Positions 3,667 to 35,120 of a stretch of DNA of 64,000 nucleotides are shown piece by piece. This DNA comes from Candidatus Hodarchaeota archaeon. GTDB taxonomy: Archaea; Asgardarchaeota; Lokiarchaeia; Sigyniarchaeales; SOKP01. The DNA lies in NCBI GenBank assembly GCA_048886685.1, contig JBHLKM010000004.1, positions 114,486 to 178,485 on the forward strand, given 5' to 3'. The notes beneath the pieces are model-generated. The model ran no database searches and was not told the origin of the DNA. It saw only the letters and a program-made list of their open reading frames with translations. The position numbers were made by a program, and so were the translations under genes. Within the stretch, counting starts at the first letter, position 1; each line of letters starts with the position of its first letter.

Positions 3667-4293
3667 TTACTTAAGAATCTTTCCAGTTTCCATATACCAC
3701 ATATAAAGATCAAGTTCGGCAAGATTAAGGTTTAATTTTACTGCGATTTGTTCTAATAATTCCTCTATTTCAAGGTATTTTGTTTTTGTTAAGGTTTTTG
3801 GTTTTTCAATTAATCTAAATTTTGTTAAGAGATCTAAAATATGAAAATCTATTATCGCATATTCAGTAAATCCTATATTCCTTAAAAAATGGCTAGCTTC
3901 TTTATAACCTAATCCTTTAATATTTGATACAATCCATTCTCTTAATTCAGGGAGGCCCTTATAAGTTTTAATTTTGATCTTTAATTCCTTTTGAAATTCT
4001 CTTGCTCTTACAATGTATTTTGCTCTAATATTGGGAAATCTATAACCATATAGTTTTAAATTTTGAGCTAACTCCTCTTCAGGTAAATTATTGAATCCAT
4101 CACCTATTAACTTTTGAACTTCAATACATTTATCTGCGCTGCAATTTGCTGTCATAATACAAAAACATAATTCTTCGAATATTTTATTATGAGAACTGTT
4201 CCGAATTTCTTTAAATCTGTTAATTCTGCTTTCTATTAATTTGTTAACTTCACTCTTCTTAAGAAGGTTTATAGCATTAAAAAAATCTTGCAT
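3667..4293 (-). CDS. ogg: 8-oxoguanine DNA glycosylase/AP lyase (archaeal Ogg)
   Basis: ELCFCIMTAN, GYRFPNIRAKYI, KGLGYKEASHFLRNIG, AIIDFHIL, C-terminal LDLYMWYMETGKILK. Confidence 0.93.
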   Translation of the reverse strand: MQDFFNAINLLKKSEVNKLIESRINRFKEIRNSSHNKIFEELCFCIMTANCSADKCIEVQKLIGDGFNNLPEEELAQNLKLYGYRFPNIRAKYIVRAREFQKELKIKIKTYKGLPELREWIVSNIKGLGYKEASHFLRNIGFTEYAIIDFHILDLLTKFRLIEKPKTLTKTKYLEIEELLEQIAVKLNLNLAELDLYMWYMETGKILK

Positions 4294-4458
4294 TTTTTAT
4301 TAAGAATTAAGCATAATTTTTATTTTAAATTCTTTAATTAAATAAGTCTAAATTGCTTTTTCCAAACCACTTCCAGATCCTGTTCCTGAGTTAGAAAGTG
4401 AGTTAAACAGGCTTAAGGGTAATAATTCCGAATAATATGATAGAGAGGTATCTTATCT

Positions 4459-4671
4459 ATGACCAAAATTAGTGCATTTGAAAGAGTATGCATCTTAACG
4501 GTTGACGATCTTGAAAAGAAGATCCTAAAGGTTTTAGGAATTTTGCGAGATATAGAAGAGAAAGAGTTATTTTCTTATGTAGAAAAGGAGATCAAGCAGC
4601 TCTTCACTTATTATAAGGAGCGAGTTATCTTTATCAAGTTTAAACCGGAAATAATACAAGAGGTATTATGA
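4459..4671 (+). CDS. Hypothetical small protein, possibly a mobile-element remnant
   Basis: 70 aa ORF with GAGGT ribosome-binding site. Overlaps (ATGA) a second very short ORF that has its own GAGGT. Confidence 0.45.
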   Translation: MTKISAFERVCILTVDDLEKKILKVLGILRDIEEKELFSYVEKEIKQLFTYYKERVIFIKFKPEIIQEVL

Positions 4672-4832
4672 CCAGAATCGATCCTAAAGTTAAAGTGTAG
4701 AGGATCTAAGTTCTTAAAAGGAAACTTATATTCAATAAAATAAAAAAAATTTTAATAGACTAGTGGCTATAGGAAATATAGAAATTTAATAGCTGAAACT
4801 TTTTGGGTAATTTAACCTAACCATAATTGCTT

Positions 4833-5072
4833 TTATTTGTTTTTTTCTCCCCTTTCTTCCTTATATTGCCTTAATATATCAATTATTCCTTTTATAAGCC
4901 AATAAAATATTGGAACAGAAAGCAAATAAGAAAAATTTGGCATTGGTGGTATTAGATAATAAAAGAATATATTTAAGATAAAACCATATATCCAAAGGCA
5001 TATAAAAAATATATGTACTAATAATTGATATATTTTTTTCTTTTTAGTTAAATCAAATATTATATCGTTCAT
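4833..5072 (-). CDS. Small two-TM membrane protein
   Basis: 79 aa, two hydrophobic segments with charged termini; AAGGA upstream. Confidence 0.55.
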   Translation of the reverse strand: MNDIIFDLTKKKKIYQLLVHIFFICLWIYGFILNIFFYYLIPPMPNFSYLLSVPIFYWLIKGIIDILRQYKEERGEKNK

Positions 5073-5163
5073 TCTTTCCTTTAATAATTAAATTAATTTA
5101 ATGTTTAACAAATTTGTAAATAGATTTGCGTATGATTCTATTTCTTTCATATTTTTTAAATTT

Positions 5164-5290
5164 AATTAAGTAGGCTTTGTGACGTTGTTTATTTAAGTTT
5201 AAGAAATTTAATTTAAATATAATTAAGTACGTTTTATGACTTACTTTACTTAAGTTTAGGTTTTTTAATTTAAGTATAATTAAATTATCA
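5164..5290 (+). repeat. Degenerate 57-bp tandem repeat (2 copies + start of a third) downstream of the TPR gene
   Basis: AATTAAGTA... units start at 5164, 5221 and 5278 (period 57). They align with the degenerate last unit of the 30209 array (30499-30555). Confidence 0.7.
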
Positions 5291-5304
5291 ATAAAAACTC
5301 GTAT

Positions 5305-7269
5305 TTATGCAATTAGAGGAACACTTTTTTCAATAAAGATTTTAGTTATCAACGGTTCCAGAGAAGGGATATCTTCTAACTGTACCATTCTGCATGTTTG
5401 ATTATATTCATTAAAAGTCTTCCATATGGTTGTATCCTCTTTAATATTATCAATAAATTTTATTACTCTTTGCTGCGCACGATATGATTGTCCCTTGAAT
5501 AAATAACATACTAAGAAGGGATGAAGGGAATTCATAATAATAGTATACTCCCCAAAATTAGCCCTATTGAGTCCCTCAGAGAACATCTCATCACTAAAGG
5601 AATTTATAGCTGTCAAAAAACCTCCAAAAAGATGATCTTCGAAAGCCCATTCTTCCGCAAAGGATTCAGAGAATACAGGCCTTCCCCCCTCTGAAATAAT
5701 CAAAAGTACGATAGGGTCTTCGTCAGTAATCTCAGGAACAGCTATTTCTCGTTTTCGGATCATTTTCTCCATCTGTTCATTTAGTTGTGCTAACTTCAAG
5801 CGTTCAGATAAGGGTGCTTTTGATTCTTTTAATTTGTCCCACACATCTAATTGCTTAATTAATTCATCGTGCTCATTCGAAATTTTCATGGCTATTAAAT
5901 TAAGACCGTATTTTTCGGCAATTTCCTGAGCTCGTGTCAAAAAGCGTCGAGCTTCGTTCGTATCAAAAGTTATTAATGCTACTTTGGCTTGTAATAGGTA
6001 GGTTTCAGCGAGAATCCGAAACGAGTTTATTTTCTCAGAAGATTCTAATATACGATTTAGATTAGTTTTAATCTCTTTTAGCACTTCAGCATCGTTAGTT
6101 ATGCGTAGTTCAACCAATAATAAATCACAAAGCTCTAATAATGCGTCAACTTTTAAATAAAATCCTTCTTCTTCAATAATTTCTTTATATATTTCTTCTG
6201 CTTTGACCCGATTTTTAGCTCGTGTGCTTGTTTTCAGTAGGTTAGCGTTCGTAAAGCGAAAGTGTAAATTAATCCATTTACTATCCTCTTGTTCGTTGAG
6301 CTGCTTTAAGCGGTTAAAGTATTTTTGGGCTAATACAAGATCGCCCATATCGACTGCTAACTCAATCAAACCACAGAGAGTTATAGCTGTAGTCATATTA
6401 ACCCCGAGTTCCTCTCTTAATGTTAGACCTCGTTCTAGATGCTCTAAAGCTTGACCAAAATTACCCTTTGCTTTATAGATATCCCCAATTTGGGTAAGTG
6501 AAGCTGCGATCCACTGTTTATTATTAATTTTTTCGAATAATTGTAAACATTGCTCTCCATACATGAGACCTCGATCTAATTCACCTTTATCTTTATGAAA
6601 AATCATTAACCATGCCAAGACCCAAGCAATATTATACTTGCTATTACTTTCCTCCGCAAATAATAAGCTTCGCTTTAGATATTCAATAGCATGATTCAAT
6701 TCACCTTTTTTCATACCAAGAATACCAGCGATGATATAAAGGGATTCAGTAATTATAACTTTATTGCCTAATTTCTCTCCCAGTACTAAGCTCTGTTCTA
6801 AAAACTTTAGTTGATCATCCGTTTTATAAGAAGATGATAGATTTTTCATACCTTTAACTAAATAAATCTGAGCTTCTCGTTGCATGTAATCTTCTGGTAA
6901 TTCTTGGGTAAATTTTTTTAATAATTCTTCGGCTTGGTTAACGTCATTAATAGCTTCCTCTTCTCTATCAAGAAATTTTAAAACCTTCGCGCTGAGTAAT
7001 AAGGCGTCAACTGATTGGAGATTTCTTCCCAACTCTAAACTCTCTTTATATGTTTGATCTGCTATTTTAAGCATTTCCTCAAATTTCCATTGCCAAAATA
7101 AAAGGTTGCACTTGAGGAGCTGACATGATACTTTATCCTGAAGTGTGAGGTTCTTCATTTGCTCGAGATTGTCTATAAGTTGGAGGGCTTCATCATACTT
7201 GCCTTCATTAATGAGTTTTTTTGCCTGAGTTAGCTCCTTTAATTCTGAGTGGGACATACAATCATCCAT
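5305..7269 (-). CDS. TPR-repeat protein with C-terminal longin-like domain
   Basis: About 40-aa TPR units (GELDRGLMYGEQCL, GNFGQALEHLERGL). C-terminal LLIISEGGRPVFS...LFGGFLTAINSF. Paralogue of 30584-32779. Likely start 7257 (MSHSELKEL). Confidence 0.88.
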   Translation of the reverse strand: MDDCMSHSELKELTQAKKLINEGKYDEALQLIDNLEQMKNLTLQDKVSCQLLKCNLLFWQWKFEEMLKIADQTYKESLELGRNLQSVDALLLSAKVLKFLDREEEAINDVNQAEELLKKFTQELPEDYMQREAQIYLVKGMKNLSSSYKTDDQLKFLEQSLVLGEKLGNKVIITESLYIIAGILGMKKGELNHAIEYLKRSLLFAEESNSKYNIAWVLAWLMIFHKDKGELDRGLMYGEQCLQLFEKINNKQWIAASLTQIGDIYKAKGNFGQALEHLERGLTLREELGVNMTTAITLCGLIELAVDMGDLVLAQKYFNRLKQLNEQEDSKWINLHFRFTNANLLKTSTRAKNRVKAEEIYKEIIEEEGFYLKVDALLELCDLLLVELRITNDAEVLKEIKTNLNRILESSEKINSFRILAETYLLQAKVALITFDTNEARRFLTRAQEIAEKYGLNLIAMKISNEHDELIKQLDVWDKLKESKAPLSERLKLAQLNEQMEKMIRKREIAVPEITDEDPIVLLIISEGGRPVFSESFAEEWAFEDHLFGGFLTAINSFSDEMFSEGLNRANFGEYTIIMNSLHPFLVCYLFKGQSYRAQQRVIKFIDNIKEDTTIWKTFNEYNQTCRMVQLEDIPSLEPLITKIFIEKSVPLIA

Positions 7270-7309
7270 ATTTTAGAGATTTGAAAAGTTTGGATTATAA
7301 TTTTTCAGA

Positions 7310-7433
7310 TACAAGTTATATATTAAGATAATGACAATTTTAAATATAATTATGTGGGTAAAAACACACCTTCTACTTAAATATTGGATACTATCACCTT
7401 TTATTTAAGTATTCATTTAAAAAAGTAACTAAA
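7310..7433 (-). promoter_or_regulatory. Conserved upstream non-coding block of the TPR gene (copy 1)
   Basis: Ungapped match to 32833-32956 (104/124 identical, hand count). Contains the inverted repeat TACTTAAA-N22-TTTAAGTA. Confidence 0.7.
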
Positions 7434-7477
7434 GTACGCTAAGAAATCAGCAAAGCTATTTTGTATATTGTATATAA

Positions 7478-7651
7478 AAAAGAAGAAAACAGAGAGAGGA
7501 TAGAGAGGATAAGAAAGGATTCAAAATAATCAAAATTGGGAATTCTCAGGGAGTAATTATAGATAGCAGAACATTAGAATATCTTGGTTTAGATGAGGGG
7601 GATTGGGTTGAGCTTATTATAAGAAAAGCTGAAGAGGAAAAAGAAGACTAA
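7478..7651 (+). pseudogene. AbrB/MazE/SpoVT-family DNA-binding domain lacking a canonical start codon
   Basis: Translates as ...KIIKIGNSQGVIIDSRTLEYLGLDEGDWVELII.... In-frame TAA at 7475 and no ATG/GTG/TTG before the domain. Duplicated AGAGAGGAT at the 5' end. Confidence 0.65.
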
Positions 7652-7923
7652 TTTTTTATCTCTTTTGTTATAGTGTTGTCATGACAAAAACGACATCATA
7701 TCTATATATTATATTAGAAAATAAAAAAGCACAAAAATTTATTATCTAAATATGGAAAGGATTTTACACACAAATTAGAATCCACAAATTTAGCGCTGTA
7801 AGGGGTTTATATAATCAGTAAGACTAAGATTATCTAATATTGTGAGGATTATTATAACAAAAAATCAAACAAAAAAACCGGCTTAAAAATATATGTTATC
7901 ATTAAATAATTAGAATCGACTTT

Positions 7924-8253
7924 TTGTTTATAAAAAAGATGAAAATTAACAATAATACTGAAGATTTTGAGTTAGATTGTTATTTGAAGATACTTGAGTA
8001 TTTCCAAACTGAAAAAGTAAGCAAGGAAAAAACTGAGATTTGGAAAGACCACTCCTTAATAGAATTGATGAAATTATTAGATAAAAAAAAAAACCGAGTT
8101 TTAGTTACTAATGCTCTTATTTTAATGTTGTCTTTATTTGAGGATATACCTCCCGATATTTATAATAACCGGGGAGTTGATATAAACCTTATCTCTATTG
8201 AAGAGAGAAAATCTTTAATTGCTGATTTAAAGGAAGAATTTCTACCTAATTAA
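7924..8253 (+). CDS. Hypothetical protein
   Basis: 109 aa ORF (probable ATG at 7939), globular composition, no motif recognised. Confidence 0.6.
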   Translation: MFIKKMKINNNTEDFELDCYLKILEYFQTEKVSKEKTEIWKDHSLIELMKLLDKKKNRVLVTNALILMLSLFEDIPPDIYNNRGVDINLISIEERKSLIADLKEEFLPN

Positions 8254-8392: not shown

Positions 8393-11300
8393 GTGTTTTT
8401 TATAATGAAATTAAAAACTCTCAAAAATAGAAGAATTATCATTGCATTTACAATTCTAGGCTTCTTATCATTAAACATATTCTTTTTGAATTTGAATACA
8501 AATCAAAACTCAGGAATAAACCATCGAAATAATGATGACAATTTAGATAAAAATTTAAAACTTCAGGATTTAGCTTCTGATAACACCTATAGTGGAATAG
8601 GGGCACCTTGGAATGTAACCCACTGGGCTAACCGAACAGATTATAATTTAGAGATCGAATTTGAAAACAATACGTATGATATTCTAGAAATCCCTTTAAC
8701 TACGGGTTGGGAAGGTTACACATTAAATGCTAAGATAAATAATTTATTTGATAAACGAAATTGGTGTAATGGTTCATTTAATTTTGGAACTGATGATAAT
8801 ATAGAAACTCCAGATGATGATACGGAATTGATTGAAAATAACTTTCAAAATTGGACTTTTGGTTATGAGGATGTTATCACTTACCCAGCTCCTCCCCCAC
8901 CTGATTGGTTTGTTAATCCAATGAGTGGTAATTACTTAGATACTACTTATGGCCCAACCGATGGCCATGATTGCTTGGAATTAAGAATAGACGGAATGGA
9001 TCTTAGTGGAGATTATTATTATGATCAAGGTGATAGATGTTGGTGGAATAGTTCTTTTGAGATTCCAAGAGGTAAAGTTATTGATAGTAAATTAGAATTT
9101 GAAGTAAAAGCCATTCATATAATGGATTTTAATGATTTCGAGTTAAGATTTTATTTAAATAATGAAAGGATTTACTCAATTGGGGGATATAATATAAAAC
9201 AGCTTCATGGAACTTCATGGGGTAGTTTTTCAATACCACAAGGTCTTTGGACTAATTCTTCAAATGTATATACTAATCCAGTAAATTCATCAGTTATAGA
9301 TATTAGAGTGGAATTAAGACAATTAATCGAATGCGGATATGGTAGTGGTTTTACAAATTACGAGTATCACCAAATTTTTATTGATAATGTAAAGTTAACT
9401 GTAAAGGCGGAAGCGAAACCATCACAAATCCAGCTTAAAATGAATGAACATACAGTAAATGATATTGTTTGGGGTAAAGGAACAGTTAATCAAGTAAATA
9501 ATTGGACTACAAGTCTTGTCCAAGTAAATTATTCCAGCACTGATGTTGGGGAATTAGGAGGTTATATAATAGATTTAAATTCTGATATAAATCTATATGT
9601 AAGAAAAGATAGTCCAGAGACTAATTATGAAACTAATACCGGCTCATTAGGCACCGGCTTTTCTGTGAATAATAATAGTATAGTAAATTGGGAGTGTTAT
9701 TCTTATTTTGCGGTTCCAACAGGTTATCAAGAAACAGAAATGAGACTACAATTCCCTACAGATGTAAATATAACATGGATATCTGAACCTCAAGATCCAA
9801 ATACTAACAGATTGAGTTTGTGTGATAATTCAACTCAAGGACTTTTAATAATTCCTGTAAATGCTATATCTACAACTCCAGATGGGTATTGGAGGATTGA
9901 AGCAACATCTCCAAATTATTGTGAGCGATTAACTATATATAATAATGTGACAGGCGAATGGCTTCAAAATAATACATTTTTAAGTGGAGATTTCATTAAC
10001 ATAACTGGAAAAATAACAGATTCGTCATTGATTTCAAGTTATATCCAACAAACTGAAGCTCAGCTCCATATAAAATTTCCAAATGGTACAGTTTGGTATA
10101 GCCAAAACCAATTAAAATCTCCTGATAGTAATGGTTACATCTATTTTGATAACTTCCAGATACCTTCATTACCCCCAAATTATGAAGTTGGGGAATATCA
10201 GGCAATAATTACATGGAACAATTCATATATTTCAGGACTAAATGAAACTGGAGTTATTTGTAAGGATTTTACCATAATACACAAATCTCTCTTAATTTCT
10301 GATCAATATTTTTACGATGAAATTTTTGAAGGTGAAATGATTAATTTGAAGGTTTCCTTTAACGATAAAGAAAATTATGATGCAATACAGAATGCCATAG
10401 TATATTTAGATAATTTTAGTGGGGGAAGACAATATTTTAGTGAAATTAGTCCTGGGTATTACTTTCTGGAGTTTGATACTACTGGTGGAGTTGCCGATAA
10501 TAACACTCTTACAATTTATGCTAATTCTACATCATATACAAATTCGCAAGTAAATGTCAGTGTTGAATTAATTCAACAAACAGTCCTTACTGCTGAAGAA
10601 TATCCAACTATGCAAGTTATCTGGAATGATAATTTTACAATCCATCTTAATTATACTATGAAATCAACAGGAGATGGTATATCAACTATGCCTACAAATA
10701 ATTGGCTTGGTGAAACCCATACTGTTGAAGGGAATCCTGGAGAGTATAATATCACTTGTAATAGTTCTGCTTATGAAGTGAATAAAATTCATTCTTTAAT
10801 AATAAATGCGGATAAGGAGGGATATGAATCCAAAACGATAATTATAGGAATTTTTTTGATAAAAAGACAAATAAATATGTCAGTATATATAGATTCTTTG
10901 AAAGTTCCAGAATTATATCAAGCTAAAAAATCTTTTCATGAAGTCCTATCAGTATCTGTAAGGATTTCCGATACGGTTACAAGTGATTTCTTATCTGGTG
11001 AAGTATTAACTTTAATAAGTGAAAATTATATTCAAAATTTAACGTATACCGCTGATTTCTGGTATAATCTGTCTATTCCTTGTTCTCCCTCAAATTTCTC
11101 ATTAGGATTGAATTCAATTGATATTCGTTTTATAAAGGATAATTATGAGATATGTATTTTTTCGTTTCAATTATTAATTAATCAAATTGAGTTAACCATT
11201 GAAACAATTGGATTTGAAGATACAATTAATGCCGAAAAAGGAGAAACAATAACAGTTCAGCTACAGTTATTAGATCCTAATACAAATAAAAGTGTTGAAA

Positions 11301-12337
11301 ATGCATCTATTACTTATTCATGGAAATATGGAATAGGTTCAATTAATCAAACTACTCCAGGCATGTATCAAGCAAGTATAATTTTACCGGAAGATATACA
11401 AGGAAATTATAAATTCGAATTAATTATAACTCCTGATAATTCAACTTATAGAACAACTATATACTCTTTTATAGTTATAATTGGTGATCCTATTCCCGGT
11501 GGAAATCAATTACCAAGTATTCTATTATGGATAATCATCGCGATTTTAGTGAGTATAGTTAGTGTTTTAGGTGCTTTAAGTATGAGATCTTACGTGATTT
11601 TACCGCGAAAGAGGAAGAAAGAATCAGAATTATTATCAAAAACACAAAGATTTAAGGATCTTAAAAATATTCAGGCTATTGTAGTTGTCCATAAGTTGAG
11701 CGGGATACCTATTTATTCGAAGAGCTATTCGATTTTGGAAAAACACAAGAAGGAATTATTTTCAGGATTTATTCAAGCTATAACCACAGTTGGAGAAGAA
11801 TTTTCTGAAAGGGAAGCTAGTATGGAAGAATCTAAAGACTCATCGAAAGGTTATGGCATTGAGAAAATAATTGAATTGGATTTCAAGTATTTCTATTGTT
11901 TAATTGCAGATAAGGATGATATAAGAGTTGTATTCATCTTAAGAGAAAAATCTTCTGAAAGGTTAAAAAGTCAAGTATCTAATTTAATTTTAGCTTTAAA
12001 CCTAAAATTATCTATAGAATTGGAAAATTGGGATGGTTCATTAGACAGGTTCGAAGAAGTGGTTCCTTTAATAATAAATGAATACTTTGAATTGCACTAC
12101 AAAGGCTCTTTCAGATTACCTGGAAAGATAAATCTCTTTCAATTACGAAAAGATAAAAGCTTGAACAAGTTAGAAGTCCGTACGTTAAACGTGATCCAAT
12201 CAATATCAAAAAGAAACAATAATATTGTTAATCTGGATAATGTTATAGAATTAGTTCACGAGGAAAATAAAGATCTCATAATTGTAGCTATTGAATCGTT
12301 GATAGAGAAAAAATTTATTTTACCGATTAATTCTTAA
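8393..12337 (+). CDS. Large single-pass surface protein: beta-rich glycosylated ectodomain, TM, cytoplasmic longin-like + winged-helix-like tail
   Basis: N-terminal signal/anchor (probable start 8405), many N-x-S/T sequons, TM ILLWIIIAILVSIVSVLGAL, then AIVVVHKLSGIPIYSK...LFSGFIQAITT. Confidence 0.85.
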   Translation: MFFIMKLKTLKNRRIIIAFTILGFLSLNIFFLNLNTNQNSGINHRNNDDNLDKNLKLQDLASDNTYSGIGAPWNVTHWANRTDYNLEIEFENNTYDILEIPLTTGWEGYTLNAKINNLFDKRNWCNGSFNFGTDDNIETPDDDTELIENNFQNWTFGYEDVITYPAPPPPDWFVNPMSGNYLDTTYGPTDGHDCLELRIDGMDLSGDYYYDQGDRCWWNSSFEIPRGKVIDSKLEFEVKAIHIMDFNDFELRFYLNNERIYSIGGYNIKQLHGTSWGSFSIPQGLWTNSSNVYTNPVNSSVIDIRVELRQLIECGYGSGFTNYEYHQIFIDNVKLTVKAEAKPSQIQLKMNEHTVNDIVWGKGTVNQVNNWTTSLVQVNYSSTDVGELGGYIIDLNSDINLYVRKDSPETNYETNTGSLGTGFSVNNNSIVNWECYSYFAVPTGYQETEMRLQFPTDVNITWISEPQDPNTNRLSLCDNSTQGLLIIPVNAISTTPDGYWRIEATSPNYCERLTIYNNVTGEWLQNNTFLSGDFINITGKITDSSLISSYIQQTEAQLHIKFPNGTVWYSQNQLKSPDSNGYIYFDNFQIPSLPPNYEVGEYQAIITWNNSYISGLNETGVICKDFTIIHKSLLISDQYFYDEIFEGEMINLKVSFNDKENYDAIQNAIVYLDNFSGGRQYFSEISPGYYFLEFDTTGGVADNNTLTIYANSTSYTNSQVNVSVELIQQTVLTAEEYPTMQVIWNDNFTIHLNYTMKSTGDGISTMPTNNWLGETHTVEGNPGEYNITCNSSAYEVNKIHSLIINADKEGYESKTIIIGIFLIKRQINMSVYIDSLKVPELYQAKKSFHEVLSVSVRISDTVTSDFLSGEVLTLISENYIQNLTYTADFWYNLSIPCSPSNFSLGLNSIDIRFIKDNYEICIFSFQLLINQIELTIETIGFEDTINAEKGETITVQLQLLDPNTNKSVENASITYSWKYGIGSINQTTPGMYQASIILPEDIQGNYKFELIITPDNSTYRTTIYSFIVIIGDPIPGGNQLPSILLWIIIAILVSIVSVLGALSMRSYVILPRKRKKESELLSKTQRFKDLKNIQAIVVVHKLSGIPIYSKSYSILEKHKKELFSGFIQAITTVGEEFSEREASMEESKDSSKGYGIEKIIELDFKYFYCLIADKDDIRVVFILREKSSERLKSQVSNLILALNLKLSIELENWDGSLDRFEEVVPLIINEYFELHYKGSFRLPGKINLFQLRKDKSLNKLEVRTLNVIQSISKRNNNIVNLDNVIELVHEENKDLIIVAIESLIEKKFILPINS

Positions 12338-29224: not shown

Positions 29225-30190
29225 TTAAAATCTAATTACATCAATAGACTCTTCTTTTCCATTATTTATCCTCAGAAGATTTGGATCTTTAATAATATTT
29301 CCTATAATATTAGCATTTAACCCATATTCTTGAAATGTTTCTATAATTTCTTCGCAGTTTATTTCAGGGGCAGTCAATAGAAATGAGGTAGTTAAATACA
29401 TTTGAATATAGGTTTCTAAATTATATCCATTATCCTGTAATTTTGGGGGAATTTTAATTTTTGATATATTCACATCTGCTCCTACATTTGAATAATTTAT
29501 CATTTGAAATAGTGTTCCAAAAATTCCACCATTAGATATGTCTTTTGATGCATTGGCTAGATGTTTTTGCGCAATCATATTCATAGCTTTTCTCTTTCTT
29601 AAAACTTCTTCGGAACTTTTAAAAGTGGTAGTATCATAATATAGGTTGCTTGCTTTACCCTTTTTTCCATCGAAATCAACTGCTAATATAATATTATCTC
29701 CTACTTGTGCATTTCCTGCAGAAATGTAATCTTCCTTTTTAATTTCACCAATCATTGTAGAACTTAACTCATAACATTTTCCATGGACGTTAGTATGTCC
29801 TCTAATAATCGGAACATTAAATTTCTGGGAACCCGCACATATTCCTTCAAGCAATTCTTTACAGATATCTGGTTCTTTCACTGAAATAATTATGCTTGCT
29901 GCTAATGGGACTCCCCCACATGCATAAATATCATCTACACTAACCAGAATTGAGCTAAAACCAGCACCAAATGGGAAATTTTCGATAAAAGTAGTTTTTA
30001 TTCTATCTGTAGTAACCAGTATATATTTATCATCATCTTTTATAGTGGCAGCGTCTTCACCTATATCTGTGAATATATTTGCACTTTTAAACGAATTTTT
30101 GTCAATAAATTGAACTATAGGACTAATTTGTCGCTTTTCTAGAATGTATTGATTATTTTTAATGCTATTAGCAATCTTTTTAAGTGTCAT
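29225..30190 (-). CDS. AIR-synthase/PurM-like protein (methanogenesis marker 2-like)
   Basis: IGEDAA, VSVDDIYACGG, VPIIRGHT, ASKDISNGG. Confidence 0.8.
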   Translation of the reverse strand: MTLKKIANSIKNNQYILEKRQISPIVQFIDKNSFKSANIFTDIGEDAATIKDDDKYILVTTDRIKTTFIENFPFGAGFSSILVSVDDIYACGGVPLAASIIISVKEPDICKELLEGICAGSQKFNVPIIRGHTNVHGKCYELSSTMIGEIKKEDYISAGNAQVGDNIILAVDFDGKKGKASNLYYDTTTFKSSEEVLRKRKAMNMIAQKHLANASKDISNGGIFGTLFQMINYSNVGADVNISKIKIPPKLQDNGYNLETYIQMYLTTSFLLTAPEINCEEIIETFQEYGLNANIIGNIIKDPNLLRINNGKEESIDVIRF

Positions 30191-30208: not shown

Positions 30209-30555
30209 GTTATTAATAAATAACTGAGTAAAATTACTCGGTTTACTTATTTATACTTAATATTGTTATTAATAAATAACTGAGTAAAAATACCCAGTTT
30301 ACTTAATTATAGTTATATAAAGTTATTAATAAATAACTGAGTAAAATTACCCAGTTTACTTATTTATACTTAATATAGTTATTAATAAATAACTGAGTAA
30401 AATTACCCAGTTTACTTATTTATACTTAATATTGTTATTAATAAATAACTGAGTAAAATTACCCAGTTTACTTATTTATACTTAATATTGTTATTATAAA
30501 TTAAATACGTTAAATAACATTATTTACTTAATTTTAAGTTATTTTGTTTAAGTTT
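30209..30555 (+). repeat. 56-57 bp tandem repeat array (5 near-identical units + 1 degenerate), each with a 22-bp imperfect palindrome
   Basis: Unit GTTATTAATAAATAACTGAGTAAAATTACCCAGTTTACTTATTTATACTTAATATT at 30209, 30265, 30322, 30378 and 30434; degenerate unit from 30490. Confidence 0.97.
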
Positions 30556-30583
30556 AGTTTAAATCATCAATAAAAACTAAAAT

Positions 30584-32779
30584 CTAAGCAATTAAGGGGA
30601 CACTTTTATCTATGAAGATTTTGGTTATCATAAGCTCAAGAGAAGGAATATCTTTTACTTGAATTTCCTTATTTAACCGGTAAAAATCCCTAAAAGTCTG
30701 CCAGGCATCTTTATCTTTCTGTAATTCGTCAATGAAATATCTAATCCTCTGTTGTGCCGAATATGATTGCCCCTTGTATACATAACACATCAGAAAGGGT
30801 GAAACAGAGTTCATTAGGAGAGTATGTTCACCAAAAGTAGCTCGATCAAGCCCCTCAGAGAATTTTTCATTTATAAATGAATTAATTGCTGTAAAGAAAC
30901 TCCCAAGTAGATCATTCTCCAAAGACCATTGTTCAGTAAATGATTGAGAGAATATTGGTATTCCCCCTTCTGAGACAACTAAAAGTAGAACAGGATCTTC
31001 ATCTGAAAGTTGAGGAGCTTCCACTACTCGCCTTCTGATCATATTCTCCAATTGTTCATTTAATCGAGCAAATTCTATACGATCTTTTATTGATGAACTT
31101 GATTCTTTTAAACTCTCCCATACATTTAATTGTTTTAGAAGATCATCATGTTCATTTGAAATTTTTATAGCTAGCAATTTAAGACCGAATTTTTCGGCGA
31201 TTTGCTGAGCTTGAGTTAAAAATCGCTGAGCCTCCTTCATATCAAAGGTTAATAGAGATAATTTAGCTTTTAACAAGTAAGTTTCGCATTGAACCGAGAA
31301 AGAACCCGTATTTTCGGCAATATTTAATAATTGAGCAATAAGAGGTTTGATTTCCTCCAGTACCTCTAAGTCGTTAGTCATTCGTAACTCGGTTAAGAGC
31401 AATTCACATAAGTTAGTTAGTGTTTTTATTGTTAGCTCGTAATCTTCATCCTTATCTTCAAGAATTTGCTTCAATACTTTCTCGGATTCAGCTCTATTCT
31501 GAGCTCGAGTGCTCGTTTTCAGCAATAAAGCTTTATTTAAGAGATACCTCAAATTATAATCTTTTTCTTTAAGCTGATTGTTTAGTTGTTCATAACGGTG
31601 AAGAAATTGTTGCGATCGTTCAAGGTCTCCCTTTTCAATTAATGTTTGAATTAAATAATCGTAAATACTAGCCAGACGTCTTAAATTTCCCGAATCTTCA
31701 TATAGCGCCAAGCATTGTTCTATACACTCTAAAGCACGATCTAATTCTCCTCTCTGTCTATAGGCTTCCCCCATATTATTAAGAACACCAGCAATCCACC
31801 TTTTAATGTTAAGGTCACTGAAAATTGTCAACGCTTGCTCATAAAGCTTAATACCACGATCCAAATCACCTTTAAATATATATACTGCTGCCATACTATA
31901 AAAAGAAAATCCGATAAGCCATTTAATGCCACTTTCCTCGGCGATAATCATTCCTCGTTCCAGGGTTTTTAAAGCACGATCTAATTCTCCTCTCCTTATA
32001 TAGGCTAAGCCCCTATTGTTAAGATGAATTCCGATCATAAATTCATTGTTAATACTATTGAAAACTGCTAAACCCCGATCCGAAAACATTAAACCAAGCT
32101 CCAAATCACCTTTACCATAATACTTAACAGACATACTACTCAAAGAATATCCGATAACCCATTTATTACCACTTTCCTCGGCAAGTGGCCTAGCTTGCTT
32201 GGAAAATTTTAAAGCTTGATCATAATCGGATTTCAAAAAAGTATATACCCAAGAAATTGCTATAAGGGTAATAGTCATATCCTTTTTAGCGTTAAGTTCT
32301 TCTCGTAACGCTAAACTATACCCAAGATGCTTTAATGCTTGATCAGCTTCATCTATTAATATGTAATACCAACCCTTAAGATAAGCTAAATAAGCCTTTC
32401 TTTTCTTATAATCTTCTGATATCTCTTGCGGTGAAACCTTTAGCAGTCCTTCTACTTGTTTAATAATATTGTTAAGTTTATCCGATTGTTTATGCCATAC
32501 TAAAGCATCGGCCATTCTAAGTAAGATATCGACTGACAGGAGGTTTTTTTCTAATCCTAAACTCTCTTTATATGTTTGTTCAGCAAGTGTAATAACATCT
32601 TTATGTAAACCTCTCCAAAATAAAAGATCACATTTGAGGAGATGAGATAAAACAATACTATGAAGAGAGTGTCCTCCCTTTTCCTCGAAGTTTTTAAGTA
32701 ATTGATTCGCTTCATCTAATTTACATTCTTCAAGGAGTTGTTTTATAAGAATTAATTCCTTAGGTTCTAAATAAGACAT
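30584..32779 (-). CDS. TPR-repeat protein with C-terminal longin-like domain
   Basis: 40-aa TPR units (RGELDRAL twice, KGDL twice); C-terminal LLVVSEGGIPIFSQSF...LLGSFFTAINSF. Paralogue of 5305-7269. Confidence 0.9.
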   Translation of the reverse strand: MSYLEPKELILIKQLLEECKLDEANQLLKNFEEKGGHSLHSIVLSHLLKCDLLFWRGLHKDVITLAEQTYKESLGLEKNLLSVDILLRMADALVWHKQSDKLNNIIKQVEGLLKVSPQEISEDYKKRKAYLAYLKGWYYILIDEADQALKHLGYSLALREELNAKKDMTITLIAISWVYTFLKSDYDQALKFSKQARPLAEESGNKWVIGYSLSSMSVKYYGKGDLELGLMFSDRGLAVFNSINNEFMIGIHLNNRGLAYIRRGELDRALKTLERGMIIAEESGIKWLIGFSFYSMAAVYIFKGDLDRGIKLYEQALTIFSDLNIKRWIAGVLNNMGEAYRQRGELDRALECIEQCLALYEDSGNLRRLASIYDYLIQTLIEKGDLERSQQFLHRYEQLNNQLKEKDYNLRYLLNKALLLKTSTRAQNRAESEKVLKQILEDKDEDYELTIKTLTNLCELLLTELRMTNDLEVLEEIKPLIAQLLNIAENTGSFSVQCETYLLKAKLSLLTFDMKEAQRFLTQAQQIAEKFGLKLLAIKISNEHDDLLKQLNVWESLKESSSSIKDRIEFARLNEQLENMIRRRVVEAPQLSDEDPVLLLVVSEGGIPIFSQSFTEQWSLENDLLGSFFTAINSFINEKFSEGLDRATFGEHTLLMNSVSPFLMCYVYKGQSYSAQQRIRYFIDELQKDKDAWQTFRDFYRLNKEIQVKDIPSLELMITKIFIDKSVPLIA

Positions 32780-32832
32780 ATTTTTTCCTAGAAATTATTG
32801 AATCAGATAGCTTGGTATTATCACTTTTTAAT

Positions 32833-32956
32833 TACAAGTTACATATTAAGAATATTACACTTTAAAATATAGGTACATGTGTAGAAATACAAATTCTACT
32901 TAAATATAGGATACCATCACCTTTAGTTTAAGTATTCATCTAAAAAAGTAACTAAA
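32833..32956 (-). promoter_or_regulatory. Conserved upstream non-coding block of the TPR gene (copy 2)
   Basis: Ungapped match to 7310-7433. Confidence 0.7.
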
Positions 32957-32967
32957 AAAATTAAAAT

Positions 32968-33051
32968 TACGTATTTATATATTAATAACTTTATAAAGTA
33001 TAATTAAGTAAAGTGGGTAATTTTACACACTTATTAATAAATAATAATAAC
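32968..33051 (-). repeat. Inverted copy (plus inner degenerate part-copy) of the 56-bp repeat
   Basis: AAGTATAATTAAGTAAAGTGGGTAATTTTACACACTTATT matches the reverse complement of the array unit; core at 33011-33032. Confidence 0.85.
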
Positions 33052-33095
33052 AATAAAAAAAAAAATATATTTTTTAACAAATACTTATTTTAAAT

Positions 33096-33329
33096 TTACT
33101 CTCCGCGTCCAACGAACTTTTCAAATATAAATGCGACAATACATATAATACCTGAAATGAGAATCCCAATAGGTGCGAAACCAATAGTAGTTTCACCCAT
33201 CGCAATATTTTCTGAATCAAATACAATATATAAGATTGGAAATATAATCAGTGCAATTCCTACTAGTGCATAGACTAACCAATCCCATTTAAAATCCATA
33301 CCTTTCATATTATGGATTCCATAAAACAA
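33096..33329 (-). CDS. Small two-TM membrane protein
   Basis: 77 aa with two hydrophobic segments; probable start 33308. Lies between two repeat copies. Confidence 0.6.
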   Translation of the reverse strand: MFYGIHNMKGMDFKWDWLVYALVGIALIIFPILYIVFDSENIAMGETTIGFAPIGILISGIICIVAFIFEKFVGRGE

Positions 33330-33508
33330 TAAAACACTATATAAAACTATCGCATTCTCTCAATTGTGTTACAATCCAACTTTCTTTTTTATCTATTAAT
33401 TGCTTTTATTTCAATTGTATTACAAAAAATTATTTTTATAAAAATAACAAAGTAAAAACTTTTTCTTATTGTGTACACATTAAAAAAATATTTATTGATA
33501 AAGGTTAT

Positions 33509-33555
33509 GTAAAATTAAATAAAGTGAGTAAAATTACTCAGTTATTAATAATTAA
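33509..33555 (-). repeat. Further inverted copy of the 56-bp repeat core
   Basis: AAATAAAGTGAGTAAAATTACTCAGTTATTAATAA, core TGAGTAA-AA-TTACTCA. Confidence 0.8.
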
Positions 33556-33614
33556 TTTTGCTTAATTACTTTAAGAAATTTAAAATTTAAAACAAAAAAA
33601 AATTACTTCAAGCA

Positions 33615-35120
33615 ATGGAGGAATTATTCAAAACTTCAATTATCAAGGGATTAATTTTTTCATCTTACGGAGATTTAGGTCCACAACCAATTTATGTATG
33701 GCCTAAATATTATACCGATAAAGAGATAGAAATTGTTAAAGAAGAGAGGGAAAAACAAAACCTTCTCACTCTAACAACTAGAGATGTTACACAAATCTCA
33801 ATTAAAAACCTTAGTTTGTTTATTAGTGATAGAGCATTTACTCCAGATATAGATATTCAAGGTTTAATGTATTTTGCCATCTTACCTTATCCTGATTTCA
33901 ATGCAACATCTTTAACATATTTTCATTATATCAACACTGGTCCTTCTAACTCCCAGATTCCTACAGCTTTTTCAATCTTAGTTGATGAAATTAGTAGAAG
34001 TTTTTTATATAATAATATAAACAGAATTAAACCTATTGTTATTGAATTTTTTAAAACTTTTGATAATAAATTAACTGATGGGTTTCCACCTCAATTGGAG
34101 ATAGAATCTGCATTTCATGATTTATTCAAAAAAATTATAGAGATCGAAAGAAATCCATCAACTCCAATTACTACTCATCGAAAGATGAAGATTTTATTTG
34201 CTGGGCTTGACGATAGTGGTAAAACAAGTTTTTTACTTTCTGTAGATCGAAAATATAGTAAGTTGATTGGATTAAAACCTACTACTGGTGCTAGTATTAA
34301 ATCAATAGAAGCTTTAGGAGCAACAATCTTTTTATGGGATTTAGGTGGACAACTAGAATTTAGAAAAAAATACATTAGTAAAGCAGAAATATATTTATAT
34401 GAAGCAGATTTATTATTTTATTTTATTGATATCAGGAATAAAATTAGATTTGAAGAAAGTATTGAATATCTTCTTGATTTAAAAAGAGTCTTAAAACAAT
34501 TTAATCAAAATACTCCGATTATCTATATTCTATCAAAAGGGGATTCTGATATTATAAAAACTGGGGAAATTATAGAAAATATTGAAACTATTAGAAATAG
34601 TTTAACTGAAATTTCACCAGAAGAACCACCTGAAATATATGTGACTAGTATTTTTCAGATATTTACAATATTAAGAGCCTTCTCTTCAGGAATCTCAAAA
34701 TTAAGTCCTAACAGAAATCTTATCAATCATAATCTTAGGAATTTCTCTTTAAAAACTAACGCTTATTTAACTCTATTGTTAAGTGTAGATGGGTTGGTTT
34801 TAGCAGATTTCTATTCCCCAAAAGCGAAAAAATTGACAAGGTTACCTGAATCCGAGGAATTAGTTAATGTTTTTGAGATAACTGCCCCACAATTTGCTAT
34901 GTTATTCAAAATTTTCTCTAGATTCAAGGCACTACAGGAAGAAGAAGCAATCTTTAAAGTAGCAGATTCAGTGATACTTTTCAGAAGGGTTCAAGCAGCA
35001 GAAAACGATATGTTCATGTTATTTCTGATTGATAACGAAAAAAGAAAAGAAAAAATAAATGCTAAGCTAGTTGATTTCCTTGGTCAAACAAAAGATCTTT
35101 TATTAAGATATATTGCTTAA
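33615..35120 (+). CDS. uDENN/longin-like domain + Arf/Rag-like small GTPase + roadblock-like domain
   Basis: GLIFSSYGDLGPQPIYVWP; G1 GLDDSGKTS, G3 WDLGGQ, variant G4 SKGD; LLLSVDGLVLAD. Paralogue of 18658-20124. Confidence 0.85.
   Translation: MEELFKTSIIKGLIFSSYGDLGPQPIYVWPKYYTDKEIEIVKEEREKQNLLTLTTRDVTQISIKNLSLFISDRAFTPDIDIQGLMYFAILPYPDFNATSLTYFHYINTGPSNSQIPTAFSILVDEISRSFLYNNINRIKPIVIEFFKTFDNKLTDGFPPQLEIESAFHDLFKKIIEIERNPSTPITTHRKMKILFAGLDDSGKTSFLLSVDRKYSKLIGLKPTTGASIKSIEALGATIFLWDLGGQLEFRKKYISKAEIYLYEADLLFYFIDIRNKIRFEESIEYLLDLKRVLKQFNQNTPIIYILSKGDSDIIKTGEIIENIETIRNSLTEISPEEPPEIYVTSIFQIFTILRAFSSGISKLSPNRNLINHNLRNFSLKTNAYLTLLLSVDGLVLADFYSPKAKKLTRLPESEELVNVFEITAPQFAMLFKIFSRFKALQEEEAIFKVADSVILFRRVQAAENDMFMLFLIDNEKRKEKINAKLVDFLGQTKDLLLRYIA

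Follow-up and report, generated by a model that had tools for sequence, protein, structure and literature searches.

The stretch of DNA analyzed here, a window of 64 kb (G000:C4:114486-178485), belongs to a 4.4-Mb assembly of 47 contigs with 29% G+C, denoted G000, that represents a member of a genus of Loki-type Asgard archaea. The window encompasses two genes (copy 1 and copy 2) for proteins in which tetratricopeptide repeats (TPR) are joined to a C-terminal longin-like domain, and the two genes share conserved non-coding flanks. Comparison of the loci across the genus (a set of 52 genomes, with relatives labelled G0xx) shows that both TPR-longin genes are the cargo of insertions into two divergent promoter regions and that these insertions postdate the split of G000 from its nearest sampled relatives. 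As claimed in an earlier reading of the same DNA made without database searches (hereafter, the sequence-only reading), both loci lie between divergent genes. Both insertions are located well within a 267-kb contig, and the gene order is conserved on either side. The coordinates of the features are collected in Table 1.

At the copy 2 locus, a PurM-like gene (29225-30190) and a gene for a longin-Rag-type GTPase (33615-35120) are 3.4 kb apart in G000. In 28 of the 29 loci of relatives that were fetched, these two genes are adjacent and divergent, with empty-site gaps (ten of which were read) of 51-138 bp, mostly 94-95 bp. The sequence GTTATTAATAA occurs once in the empty sites and is found at both junctions in G000. 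Within the insertion, the TPR element encloses the shared 3' flank, the copy 2 gene and the shared 5' block, and is bounded by inverted termini (30449-30490 and 32989-33030) that are identical at 35 of 42 positions, each containing an 18-20-bp dyad with TTTACTTA after it. Between the flanks of copy 2, a 120-nt inverted match scores 62, compared with 22.4 (standard deviation 3.3) for shuffled sequences (p<0.003). The PurM-like/GTPase site thus combines inverted arms with a core that they flank and that the empty site shares with the two junctions.

The core, TTATTAATAA, is a 10-bp palindrome that is represented by seven copies in positions 30210-33551, against 0.035 per kb genome-wide. In five cases, the core precedes the same 45-bp terminus, which gives rise to the 56-bp tandem units, and the remaining two cores (33031 and 33542) are each preceded by the inverted 45-bp terminus. 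One core is located 19-29 nt 5' of the start codon of the PurM-like gene, where, judging by its position, it probably doubles as the TATA box of that gene.

Table 1. Features of the two TPR-longin loci (positions in the 64-kb window)
Feature	Position	Strand	Remarks
Insertion 2 (3,322 bp plus one extra core)	30220..33541	.	in the PurM-like/GTPase divergent intergenic region
TPR element (2,586 bp)	30445..33030	-	between cores 30435-30444 and 33031-33040
56-bp unit array, x5.2	30210..30501	+	unit = 10/11-bp core (G)TTATTAATAA plus one 45-bp element terminus
TPR-longin gene, copy 2	30584..32779	-	731 aa; about two extra TPR units
Shared 5' block, copy 2	32780..32956	-	proximal promoter module (putative) and distal block with inverted repeat
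Shared 3' flank, copy 2	30500..30583	-	alignment to 3' flank of copy 1
Second element remnant	33041..33541	.	same kind of terminus; internal deletion; abuts TPR element
Truncated membrane-protein gene	33096..33329	-	77 aa; C-terminal half of the 157/159-aa genes of G060
Inverted terminus and core (33542-33551)	33505..33551	-	adjoins ancestral upstream region of the GTPase gene
Insertion 1 (3,331 bp)	4367..7697	.	in place of about 8 bp present in the empty site of relatives
3' fragment of a gene, 22 codons	4367..4432	+	left edge of insertion 1, read from sequence
Small open reading frame with two transmembrane segments, insertion 1	4833..5072	-	79 aa; not homologous to that near copy 2
57-bp units, x2.3	5155..5283	.	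AT-rich box TTTAAATATAA, dyad AAGTACG-N8-CGTACTT, TTTACTTAAG
TPR-longin gene, copy 1	5305..7269	-	654 aa; second ATG at 7257 aligns with the start of copy 2
Proximal 5' module, copy 1	7280..7352	-	two TATA-like boxes, ATTATATTTAAAAT and TTATAATCCAAA
Distal 5' block, copy 1	7353..7435	.	inverted repeat inside; sharp end at 7435
Shared 3' flank, copy 1	5220..5304	-	oligo-T stretch AGTTTTTATTGAT right after the stop codon

The same ends enclose other cargo in related genomes. In G034, an independent 1.8-kb insertion occupies the same PurM-like/GTPase site. Both of its sides show this core and these termini, the PurM side having two terminus units, and its cargo is a gene for an SBBP beta-propeller surface protein. 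The second element remnant of G000 shows 89-95% nucleotide identity (94-95% for window positions 33032-33559) to an element of G060 (L119, G060:C27, 1889-2906), which is located at a different site and carries two full-length tandem genes for membrane proteins of 157 and 159 aa with a weak match to DUF4293 (E 1.4e-3). The PurM-like proteins of G060 and G000 are only 70% identical, and therefore, the element moved between the lineages recently. Relative to G060, G000 has a 42-bp terminus segment in inverted orientation between two cores. A longer chromosomal paralogue of the truncated membrane-protein gene is present in G000 outside of the window (C6:148252-148545, spanning the paralogous stretch 148283-148500). 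For the G060 element, an empty site is available in G009, where the neighbouring gene is 98% identical. The empty site reads TTATTTATTT, whereas the filled site of G060 reads TTATTAATAAC beside the terminus, so that the element appears to bring its own core. The right junction in G060 reads TTATTTGTT, and the contig ends after 9 nt.

At the copy 1 locus, a glycosylase gene (3667-4293) and a 109-aa open reading frame (ORF; 7924-8253) flank the insertion. These genes are adjacent and divergent, 311-403 bp apart, in at least nine relatives (G056, G048, G011, G058, G003, G038, G016, G035 and G062, of which G056 and G048 are close). Positions 1-73 of the empty site match window positions 4294-4366, and positions 82-303 match 7698-7919. 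Because a 22-codon gene fragment is found at its left edge, insertion 1 is taken to be a patch of DNA from elsewhere; neither another copy of this fragment nor a donor locus for the parts of insertion 1 was found in G000. Next to the glycosylase gene, G017 (L108, C174, 8520-13040) carries other accessory genes, including those for a 199-aa small GTPase and several membrane proteins, and the site is therefore a hot spot that is variable in several species.

The 57-bp units downstream of copy 1 have the same layout as the 56-bp units of copy 2, that is, an AT-rich box and a dyad followed by TTTACTTA; the dyads differ, and both are symmetric. When aligned to the reverse-complemented units of copy 2, the 57-bp units give a local score of 22 (shuffles 13.2, standard deviation 2.2; p about 0.002). 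Among the genomes of the genus, the 57-bp unit occurs in G000 only, at copy 1, and on the 5' side of this gene, only a 9-mer, AAGTACGCT, recalls it, without being significant. The heptamer TTAAGTA forms six clusters in G000, three of them at these two loci. Two other features noted in the sequence-only reading carry less weight than proposed: the weak inverted core TGGGTAATTT at about 4804 is a 10-mer not shown to exceed chance, and the small genes with two transmembrane segments next to both copies are unrelated ORFs located on opposite sides of the respective TPR-longin genes.

The insertions are much younger than the divergence of the genes that they carry. In the maximum-likelihood tree, copy 1 pairs with a gene of G008 (support 1.0) and lies outside the clade of 18 leaves (support 0.91) that unites copy 2 with genes of other genomes and two paralogues from G000. 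The two copies are old, non-sister lineages. Synonymous divergence (dS) is about 0.5 between G000 and G017 or G056 and about 1.7 between the two TPR-longin genes, which dates both insertions to well after the split of the genes. At E<=1e-100, the close relative G056 has no match to the family and G017 has one.

The 5' flanks of the two genes (7310-7433 and 32833-32956) align without gaps at 104 of 124 positions, which reproduces the exact count of the sequence-only reading, and BLAST aligns them at 81% identity over 145 nt. The best 124-nt window of the aligned coding regions reaches 99 identical positions and the mean is 75, so that the flanks are indeed better kept than the TPR regions, as had been claimed. 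No part of the gene matches the 5' flank in conservation, and synonymous sites are about ten times less conserved. Within the flank, conservation is highest at positions 7367-7435 (about 92% identity between the copies), and the outer edge is sharp.

The 5' flank consists of two parts with different distributions. The proximal module recurs 5' of genes of the subfamily in many congeneric genomes and is also found at non-mobile tandem members, directly after the oligo-T stretch of the preceding gene; we read it as the putative promoter of the family. The distal block is absent beyond copy 1 and copy 2 in G000 and in the 52 genomes of the genus; its other matches, such as those at the 3' end of a uvrA-like gene and upstream of an aldolase gene, were rejected as chance similarities. 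The sequence-only reading had named paralogues lacking the shared flanks as evidence against a spreading cassette: the proximal module is present genus-wide in the subfamily, and the distal block is restricted to this pair. In copy 2, the distal block lies 36 nt inside the inverted terminus. An inverted repeat occurs in the distal block of both copies (7374-7382/7403-7411 and 32897-32904/32927-32934), as had been noted. An 8-bp inverted repeat with a spacer of at most 30 nt is found in 28% of shuffled sequences and in 11% of random genome windows, and the repeat was accordingly discarded as a significant feature in its own right. A conserved small ORF in the block was likewise rejected, given that the frames differ between the copies (both strands, read by eye), and a scan for bacterial-type promoters and terminators was uninformative, the host being an archaeon.

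The 3' flanks are clearly alike over about 85 nt and show 64% identity over 210 nt, and the tandem units that follow them, which the sequence-only reading had described as 57-bp units, are real (period 57, 2.3 units, at 5155-5283; period 56, 5.2 units, at about 30209-30501). The first 30-40 nt of the shared 3' flank are conserved behind subfamily genes in G013 and G002 as well. Judging by its composition and position, the oligo-T stretch AGTTTTTATTGAT after the stop codon of copy 1 is a probable terminator.

We propose that TPR-longin genes are distributed in insertable packets that recombine at the core with the help of an enzyme acting in trans and that carry their own expression signals, an account that, taken as a whole, we consider fairly probable. 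Mobility of the packets would depend on conservative site-specific recombination in the core palindrome, catalyzed by an enzyme that is not encoded in the packet. Integration would regenerate the core on both sides, leaving the site usable and sparing both neighbouring promoters, and the regenerated core would allow packets to stack, small segments to invert, and solo units of one core and one terminus to accumulate as the 56-bp tandem units. A packet landing in foreign contexts would need its own expression signals, and this would account for the conserved flanks, a kit that would comprise the two-TATA promoter module, the upstream block of about 70 bp and the oligo-T terminator. The distal 70 bp or so may be a site for a regulator or an inner recombination arm. 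Selection would hold the flanks at 84-92% identity while synonymous sites became randomized. Copy 1 would have come in with a 3.3-kb patch through illegitimate recombination, and its 57-bp units would be degenerate remnants of packet ends. The only match to a tyrosine recombinase (PF00589) in G000, on another contig (C2:183383-183856) and not beside the array, is a candidate for the mover of the packets.

Recombination at a symmetric core fits the copy 2 locus because the core is reused, packets are stacked, a small segment is inverted, and solo units of core and terminus are present. The same locus also bears on the best surviving alternative, namely, that the packets are non-autonomous cut-and-paste transposons (Pack-type or similar to miniature inverted-repeat transposable elements, MITEs) mobilized by a DDE transposase encoded elsewhere, with the 10-11-bp copy being a target-site duplication at a preferred AT-rich palindrome. 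Inverted termini identical at 35 of 42 positions and present also in G034 and G060, a flanking 11-mer found once in the empty site, subterminal heptamer repeats and cargo that differs between copies are all in line with such transposons. However, the core at the left junction in G060 differs from the G009 target, and the tandem units of core and terminus, as well as the inverted 42-bp segment between cores, are atypical of transposition. Furthermore, each genome has one locus, the 52 genomes contain no autonomous copy, and no recombinase or transposase is encoded in the packets; in G000 itself, no resolvase and no transposase of the IS4/IS5 type (DDE_Tnp_1) or the Mutator type was found, the other transposase families not having been searched. 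On the whole, we regard this alternative as unlikely. As for the mechanistic step in isolation, site-specific recombination fits better than target-site duplication, and set against a non-autonomous transposon, its chances are about even.

Similarity of the flanks could also result from exchange between the two loci, which are 25 kb apart on one contig, by gene conversion or ectopic recombination, rather than from functional selection. The confinement of the distal block to two non-sister genes, which implies different histories of flank and gene, and the sharp outer boundaries of the block are in line with this possibility. The identity, however, is 84-92% rather than close to 100%, with evenly spread mismatches, the adjoining first 130 codons are nearly saturated (dS 1.3), and the proximal part is equally well conserved in other species, which cannot have undergone conversion with these loci. 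Gene conversion as the full explanation appears quite improbable.

An ordinary old duplication, with the block being a retained promoter and the genes lost in relatives, would agree with the proximal 5' module being the family promoter throughout the genus and with the frequent growth of the family by tandem duplication. The shared flanks are nevertheless not a promoter left by one such duplication because the genes flanking the insertions are directly adjacent in relatives; the stable synteny that the sequence-only reading had named as evidence against its own proposal is contradicted by these empty sites. Loss would have to restore short intergenic regions precisely at 28 loci of one site and at least 9 of the other, the core is duplicated at the junctions, the ends are inverted, the same ends occur with other cargo elsewhere, and the genes are not sisters, so that we give this scenario very little credence. 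The idea of two co-regulated genes that share a conserved operator and are stable in synteny was likewise dropped, given the empty sites in relatives. That the 5' block encodes a structured leader RNA or a small RNA is similarly implausible: the long contiguous conserved stretch is unusual for a protein-binding site and the inverted repeat is kept in both copies, but neither on the two strands nor for the consensus fold is the folding energy better than that of shuffled sequences (z from -0.6 to +0.6), compensatory changes are lacking, Rfam gives no match at either locus, and the TATA-like boxes conserved in the genus are downstream of the block.

The notion of the sequence-only reading that the family spreads as a cassette is therefore retained in modified form: packets are insertable, with inverted ends and a duplicated core at copy 2 and with the same ends around other cargo, but the ends had been misplaced. 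The shared blocks taken for fixed cassette ends are internal to the actual termini, copy 1 and copy 2 do not have the same ends, and no clean ends are seen at copy 1.

Several observations weigh against the packet account. The ends of insertion 1 show no inverted or direct repeats and no duplicated target or core, they have no similarity to those of insertion 2, and the likeness of the 57-bp units to the copy 2 units is weak. The termini were detected in only 3 of the 52 genomes of the genus (G000, G034 and G060), at one locus in each, and species representatives of other taxa and Joint Genome Institute (JGI) metagenomes yielded no further ones, bar the known G034 locus; two terminus matches outside of the group are on a Bacteroidetes contig and on a metagenome contig without related genes. 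Among the copies found in the 52 genomes, the species representatives and the metagenomes, none is autonomous or linked to an enzyme, and the junction of joined ends expected of a circle is absent from every assembly of the genus. The argument from the hybrid core involves a single locus, at which the contig ends 9 nt into the right junction. With two sequences alone, selection on the distal block is inseparable from old gene conversion, and the assignments of promoter and terminator are putative, being based only on sequence pattern and position. Finally, the source is a metagenome-assembled genome with an estimated contamination of 8%, and the insertions could be strain variants.

Among known systems, the packets resemble integrons and clusters of attC sites lacking integron-integrases (CALINs) in that they hold single genes of unrelated kinds, regenerate a short site, stack, and do not encode the enzyme. 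The sites described here, however, face each other around the cargo, whereas integron attC sites are co-oriented; the core is a perfect 10-bp palindrome; no folded site of the attC type was seen (attC models were not run) and no integron integrase is located beside the array; and each packet brings its own putative promoter, whereas integron cassettes share a common one. Integrons have reportedly been described in archaea (by Ghaly et al. in 2022). Integrative mobile elements exploiting Xer (IMEX), such as CTX phage, integrate via the Xer recombinase of the host. Like these elements, the packets lack a recombinase of their own, use a short dyad-symmetric site and stack in tandem, and G000 has a single tyrosine recombinase; whereas IMEX use the single dif site, the packets land in AT-rich promoter palindromes at several chromosomal places. 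MITE-derived cargo elements and Pack-MULEs share with the packets the inverted termini, the short flanking duplicate, the lack of an internal transposase and the variable captured genes, and differ from them in that here the copy number is very low, there is evidence of an element-borne core, terminus units are in tandem, and no matching autonomous element is found. The Plasmodium var genes with their ups promoters and the trypanosome variant surface glycoprotein (VSG) cassettes with their 70-bp repeats also represent families with fast turnover in which class-specific flanks outlast the coding sequence, and tandem repeats of about 57-70 bp likewise occur in the flanks. This is an analogy in working only, in that here there is no evidence of switching, silencing or expression-site recombination, and the organisms and enzymes are unrelated.

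With its inverted ends, palindromic core and self-contained promoter (the latter as predicted), the system is a variation on known gene-packet systems. A bolder interpretation, which we offer tentatively and consider less than probable, is that of a not-yet-described, Loki-type gene-packet system with symmetric ends, a palindromic, TATA-like 10-bp core, non-breaking insertion into divergent promoters, its own promoter and terminator, a host enzyme (possibly of the Xer type) and interspecies transfer. If this is true, the packet system would drive the swings between 0 and 40 copies in the TPR-longin scaffold family, beside Rag-like GTPases.

The genomes of Asgard archaea are large and contain many paralogues of eukaryote-like signalling parts. 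Insertable packets with defined ends that hold a TPR-longin scaffold gene together with its predicted expression signals provide one concrete route for the expansion of such families, and near-identical packets in species with core genes 30% diverged point to lateral passage within the genus. As a caution, the counts of 'eukaryotic signature' paralogues in Asgard genomes partly reflect mobile accessory DNA. The 10-bp palindrome with its arms of 20-40 bp, along with the matched empty and filled loci, makes for a testable site.

The family is represented in G000 by about 26 full-length TPR-longin paralogues, in addition to fragments and two TPR-only forms, and relatives have between 0 and about 40 members, frequently as tandem copies. 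The TPR-only forms stop just before the longin domain and are encoded outside of the window (C4:30666-32225, 519 aa; C37:3152-4576, 474 aa). At least eight other TPR-longin paralogues of G000 (group B) are flanked on both sides by a 45-nt repeat with the core GGTAAATTCAGCGTCTGATTTCAATGAAAATTCCTTTGA, of which G000 contains about 43 copies at 90-100% identity, clustered, co-oriented and 1-3 kb apart. The clusters are located outside of the window (C15:89-112 kb, C12:153-167 kb, C25:0.7-11 kb, C34:5-14 kb, and C19:23-30 and 84-90 kb), and no copy of this repeat was detected within it (nhmmer with a 32-copy profile, best E 1.2). These arrays belong to the same genus as the packets and have the same kind of accessory cargo, but comprise about 43 co-oriented copies, whereas the packet termini form inverted pairs at one locus per genome.

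In both proteins, Pfam TPR models score above the curated cut-off (TPR_12, 63 and 80 bits; TPR_MalT, 45.1 and 65.8 bits). No Pfam family, including the curated longin family, covers the C-terminal 140 aa of either protein (residues 510-654 and 590-731). An AlphaFold model of this domain, built from an alignment of 23 sequences (predicted local distance difference test, pLDDT, 79.7), contains the elements E15-22, E27-32, H41-61, E65-68, E71-78, E81-88, H92-107 and H109-120. This order, strand-strand-helix-strand-strand-strand-helix(-helix), is of the longin type and lacks the N-terminal helix of roadblock domains. Solved longin domains are among the best Foldseek matches of the model (AP-2 sigma, zeta-COP, VAMP7, Sec22b and sedlin; E 1.7e-4 to 4e-3, TM-score about 0.5), with roadblock proteins (LAMTOR and MglB) scoring nearly as high. 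The longin-like C-terminus recognized in the sequence-only reading is thus borne out at the level of the modelled fold, and on the model, the label 'TPR-longin' is fair for both proteins.

The coding sequences of copy 1 and copy 2 are 61% identical (47% at third positions; dS about 1.7, saturated), and dN/dS values per domain, which would bear on the diversifying receptor family invoked in the sequence-only reading, are not interpretable because dS is saturated. Amino-acid identity is 44% for residues 1-130, 36% for 131-340, 55% for 341-510 and 58% for 511-654. The contrast between strongly diverged N-terminal TPR and a very similar C-terminus, drawn in the sequence-only reading, is hence correct in direction and overstated in size, the rise from 36-44% to 55-58% being modest. 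The alignment with copy 2 suggests that the second ATG, at 7257, is the likely real start of copy 1.

Three further observations concern insertion 1 and its surroundings. Positions 5071-5163, comprising 90 nt 5' of the ORF with two transmembrane segments, are 79-84% identical to a segment in four relatives, which in G011, G055 and G058 is located between a gene for a 53-aa zinc-ribbon protein resembling a ribosomal protein and a conserved 100-aa gene next to the thermosome gene, and in G049 has a different context; the stretch looks like a captured promoter region. Positions 7508-7648 (+ strand), inside insertion 1 and divergent from copy 1, contain a small open frame that reads ...IKIGNSQGVIIDSRTLEYLGLDEGDWVELIIRK..., has no ATG, GTG or TTG start and no Pfam match at E<=0.01, and is preceded by purine-rich AGAGAGG repeats; it is reminiscent of DNA-binding domains of the AbrB/MazE type. 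Adjoining the insertion, positions 8393-12337 (+ strand) encode a single-pass surface protein of 1,314 aa without a Pfam match, the cytoplasmic tail of which resembles, by eye, the C-terminal domain of the TPR-longin proteins.

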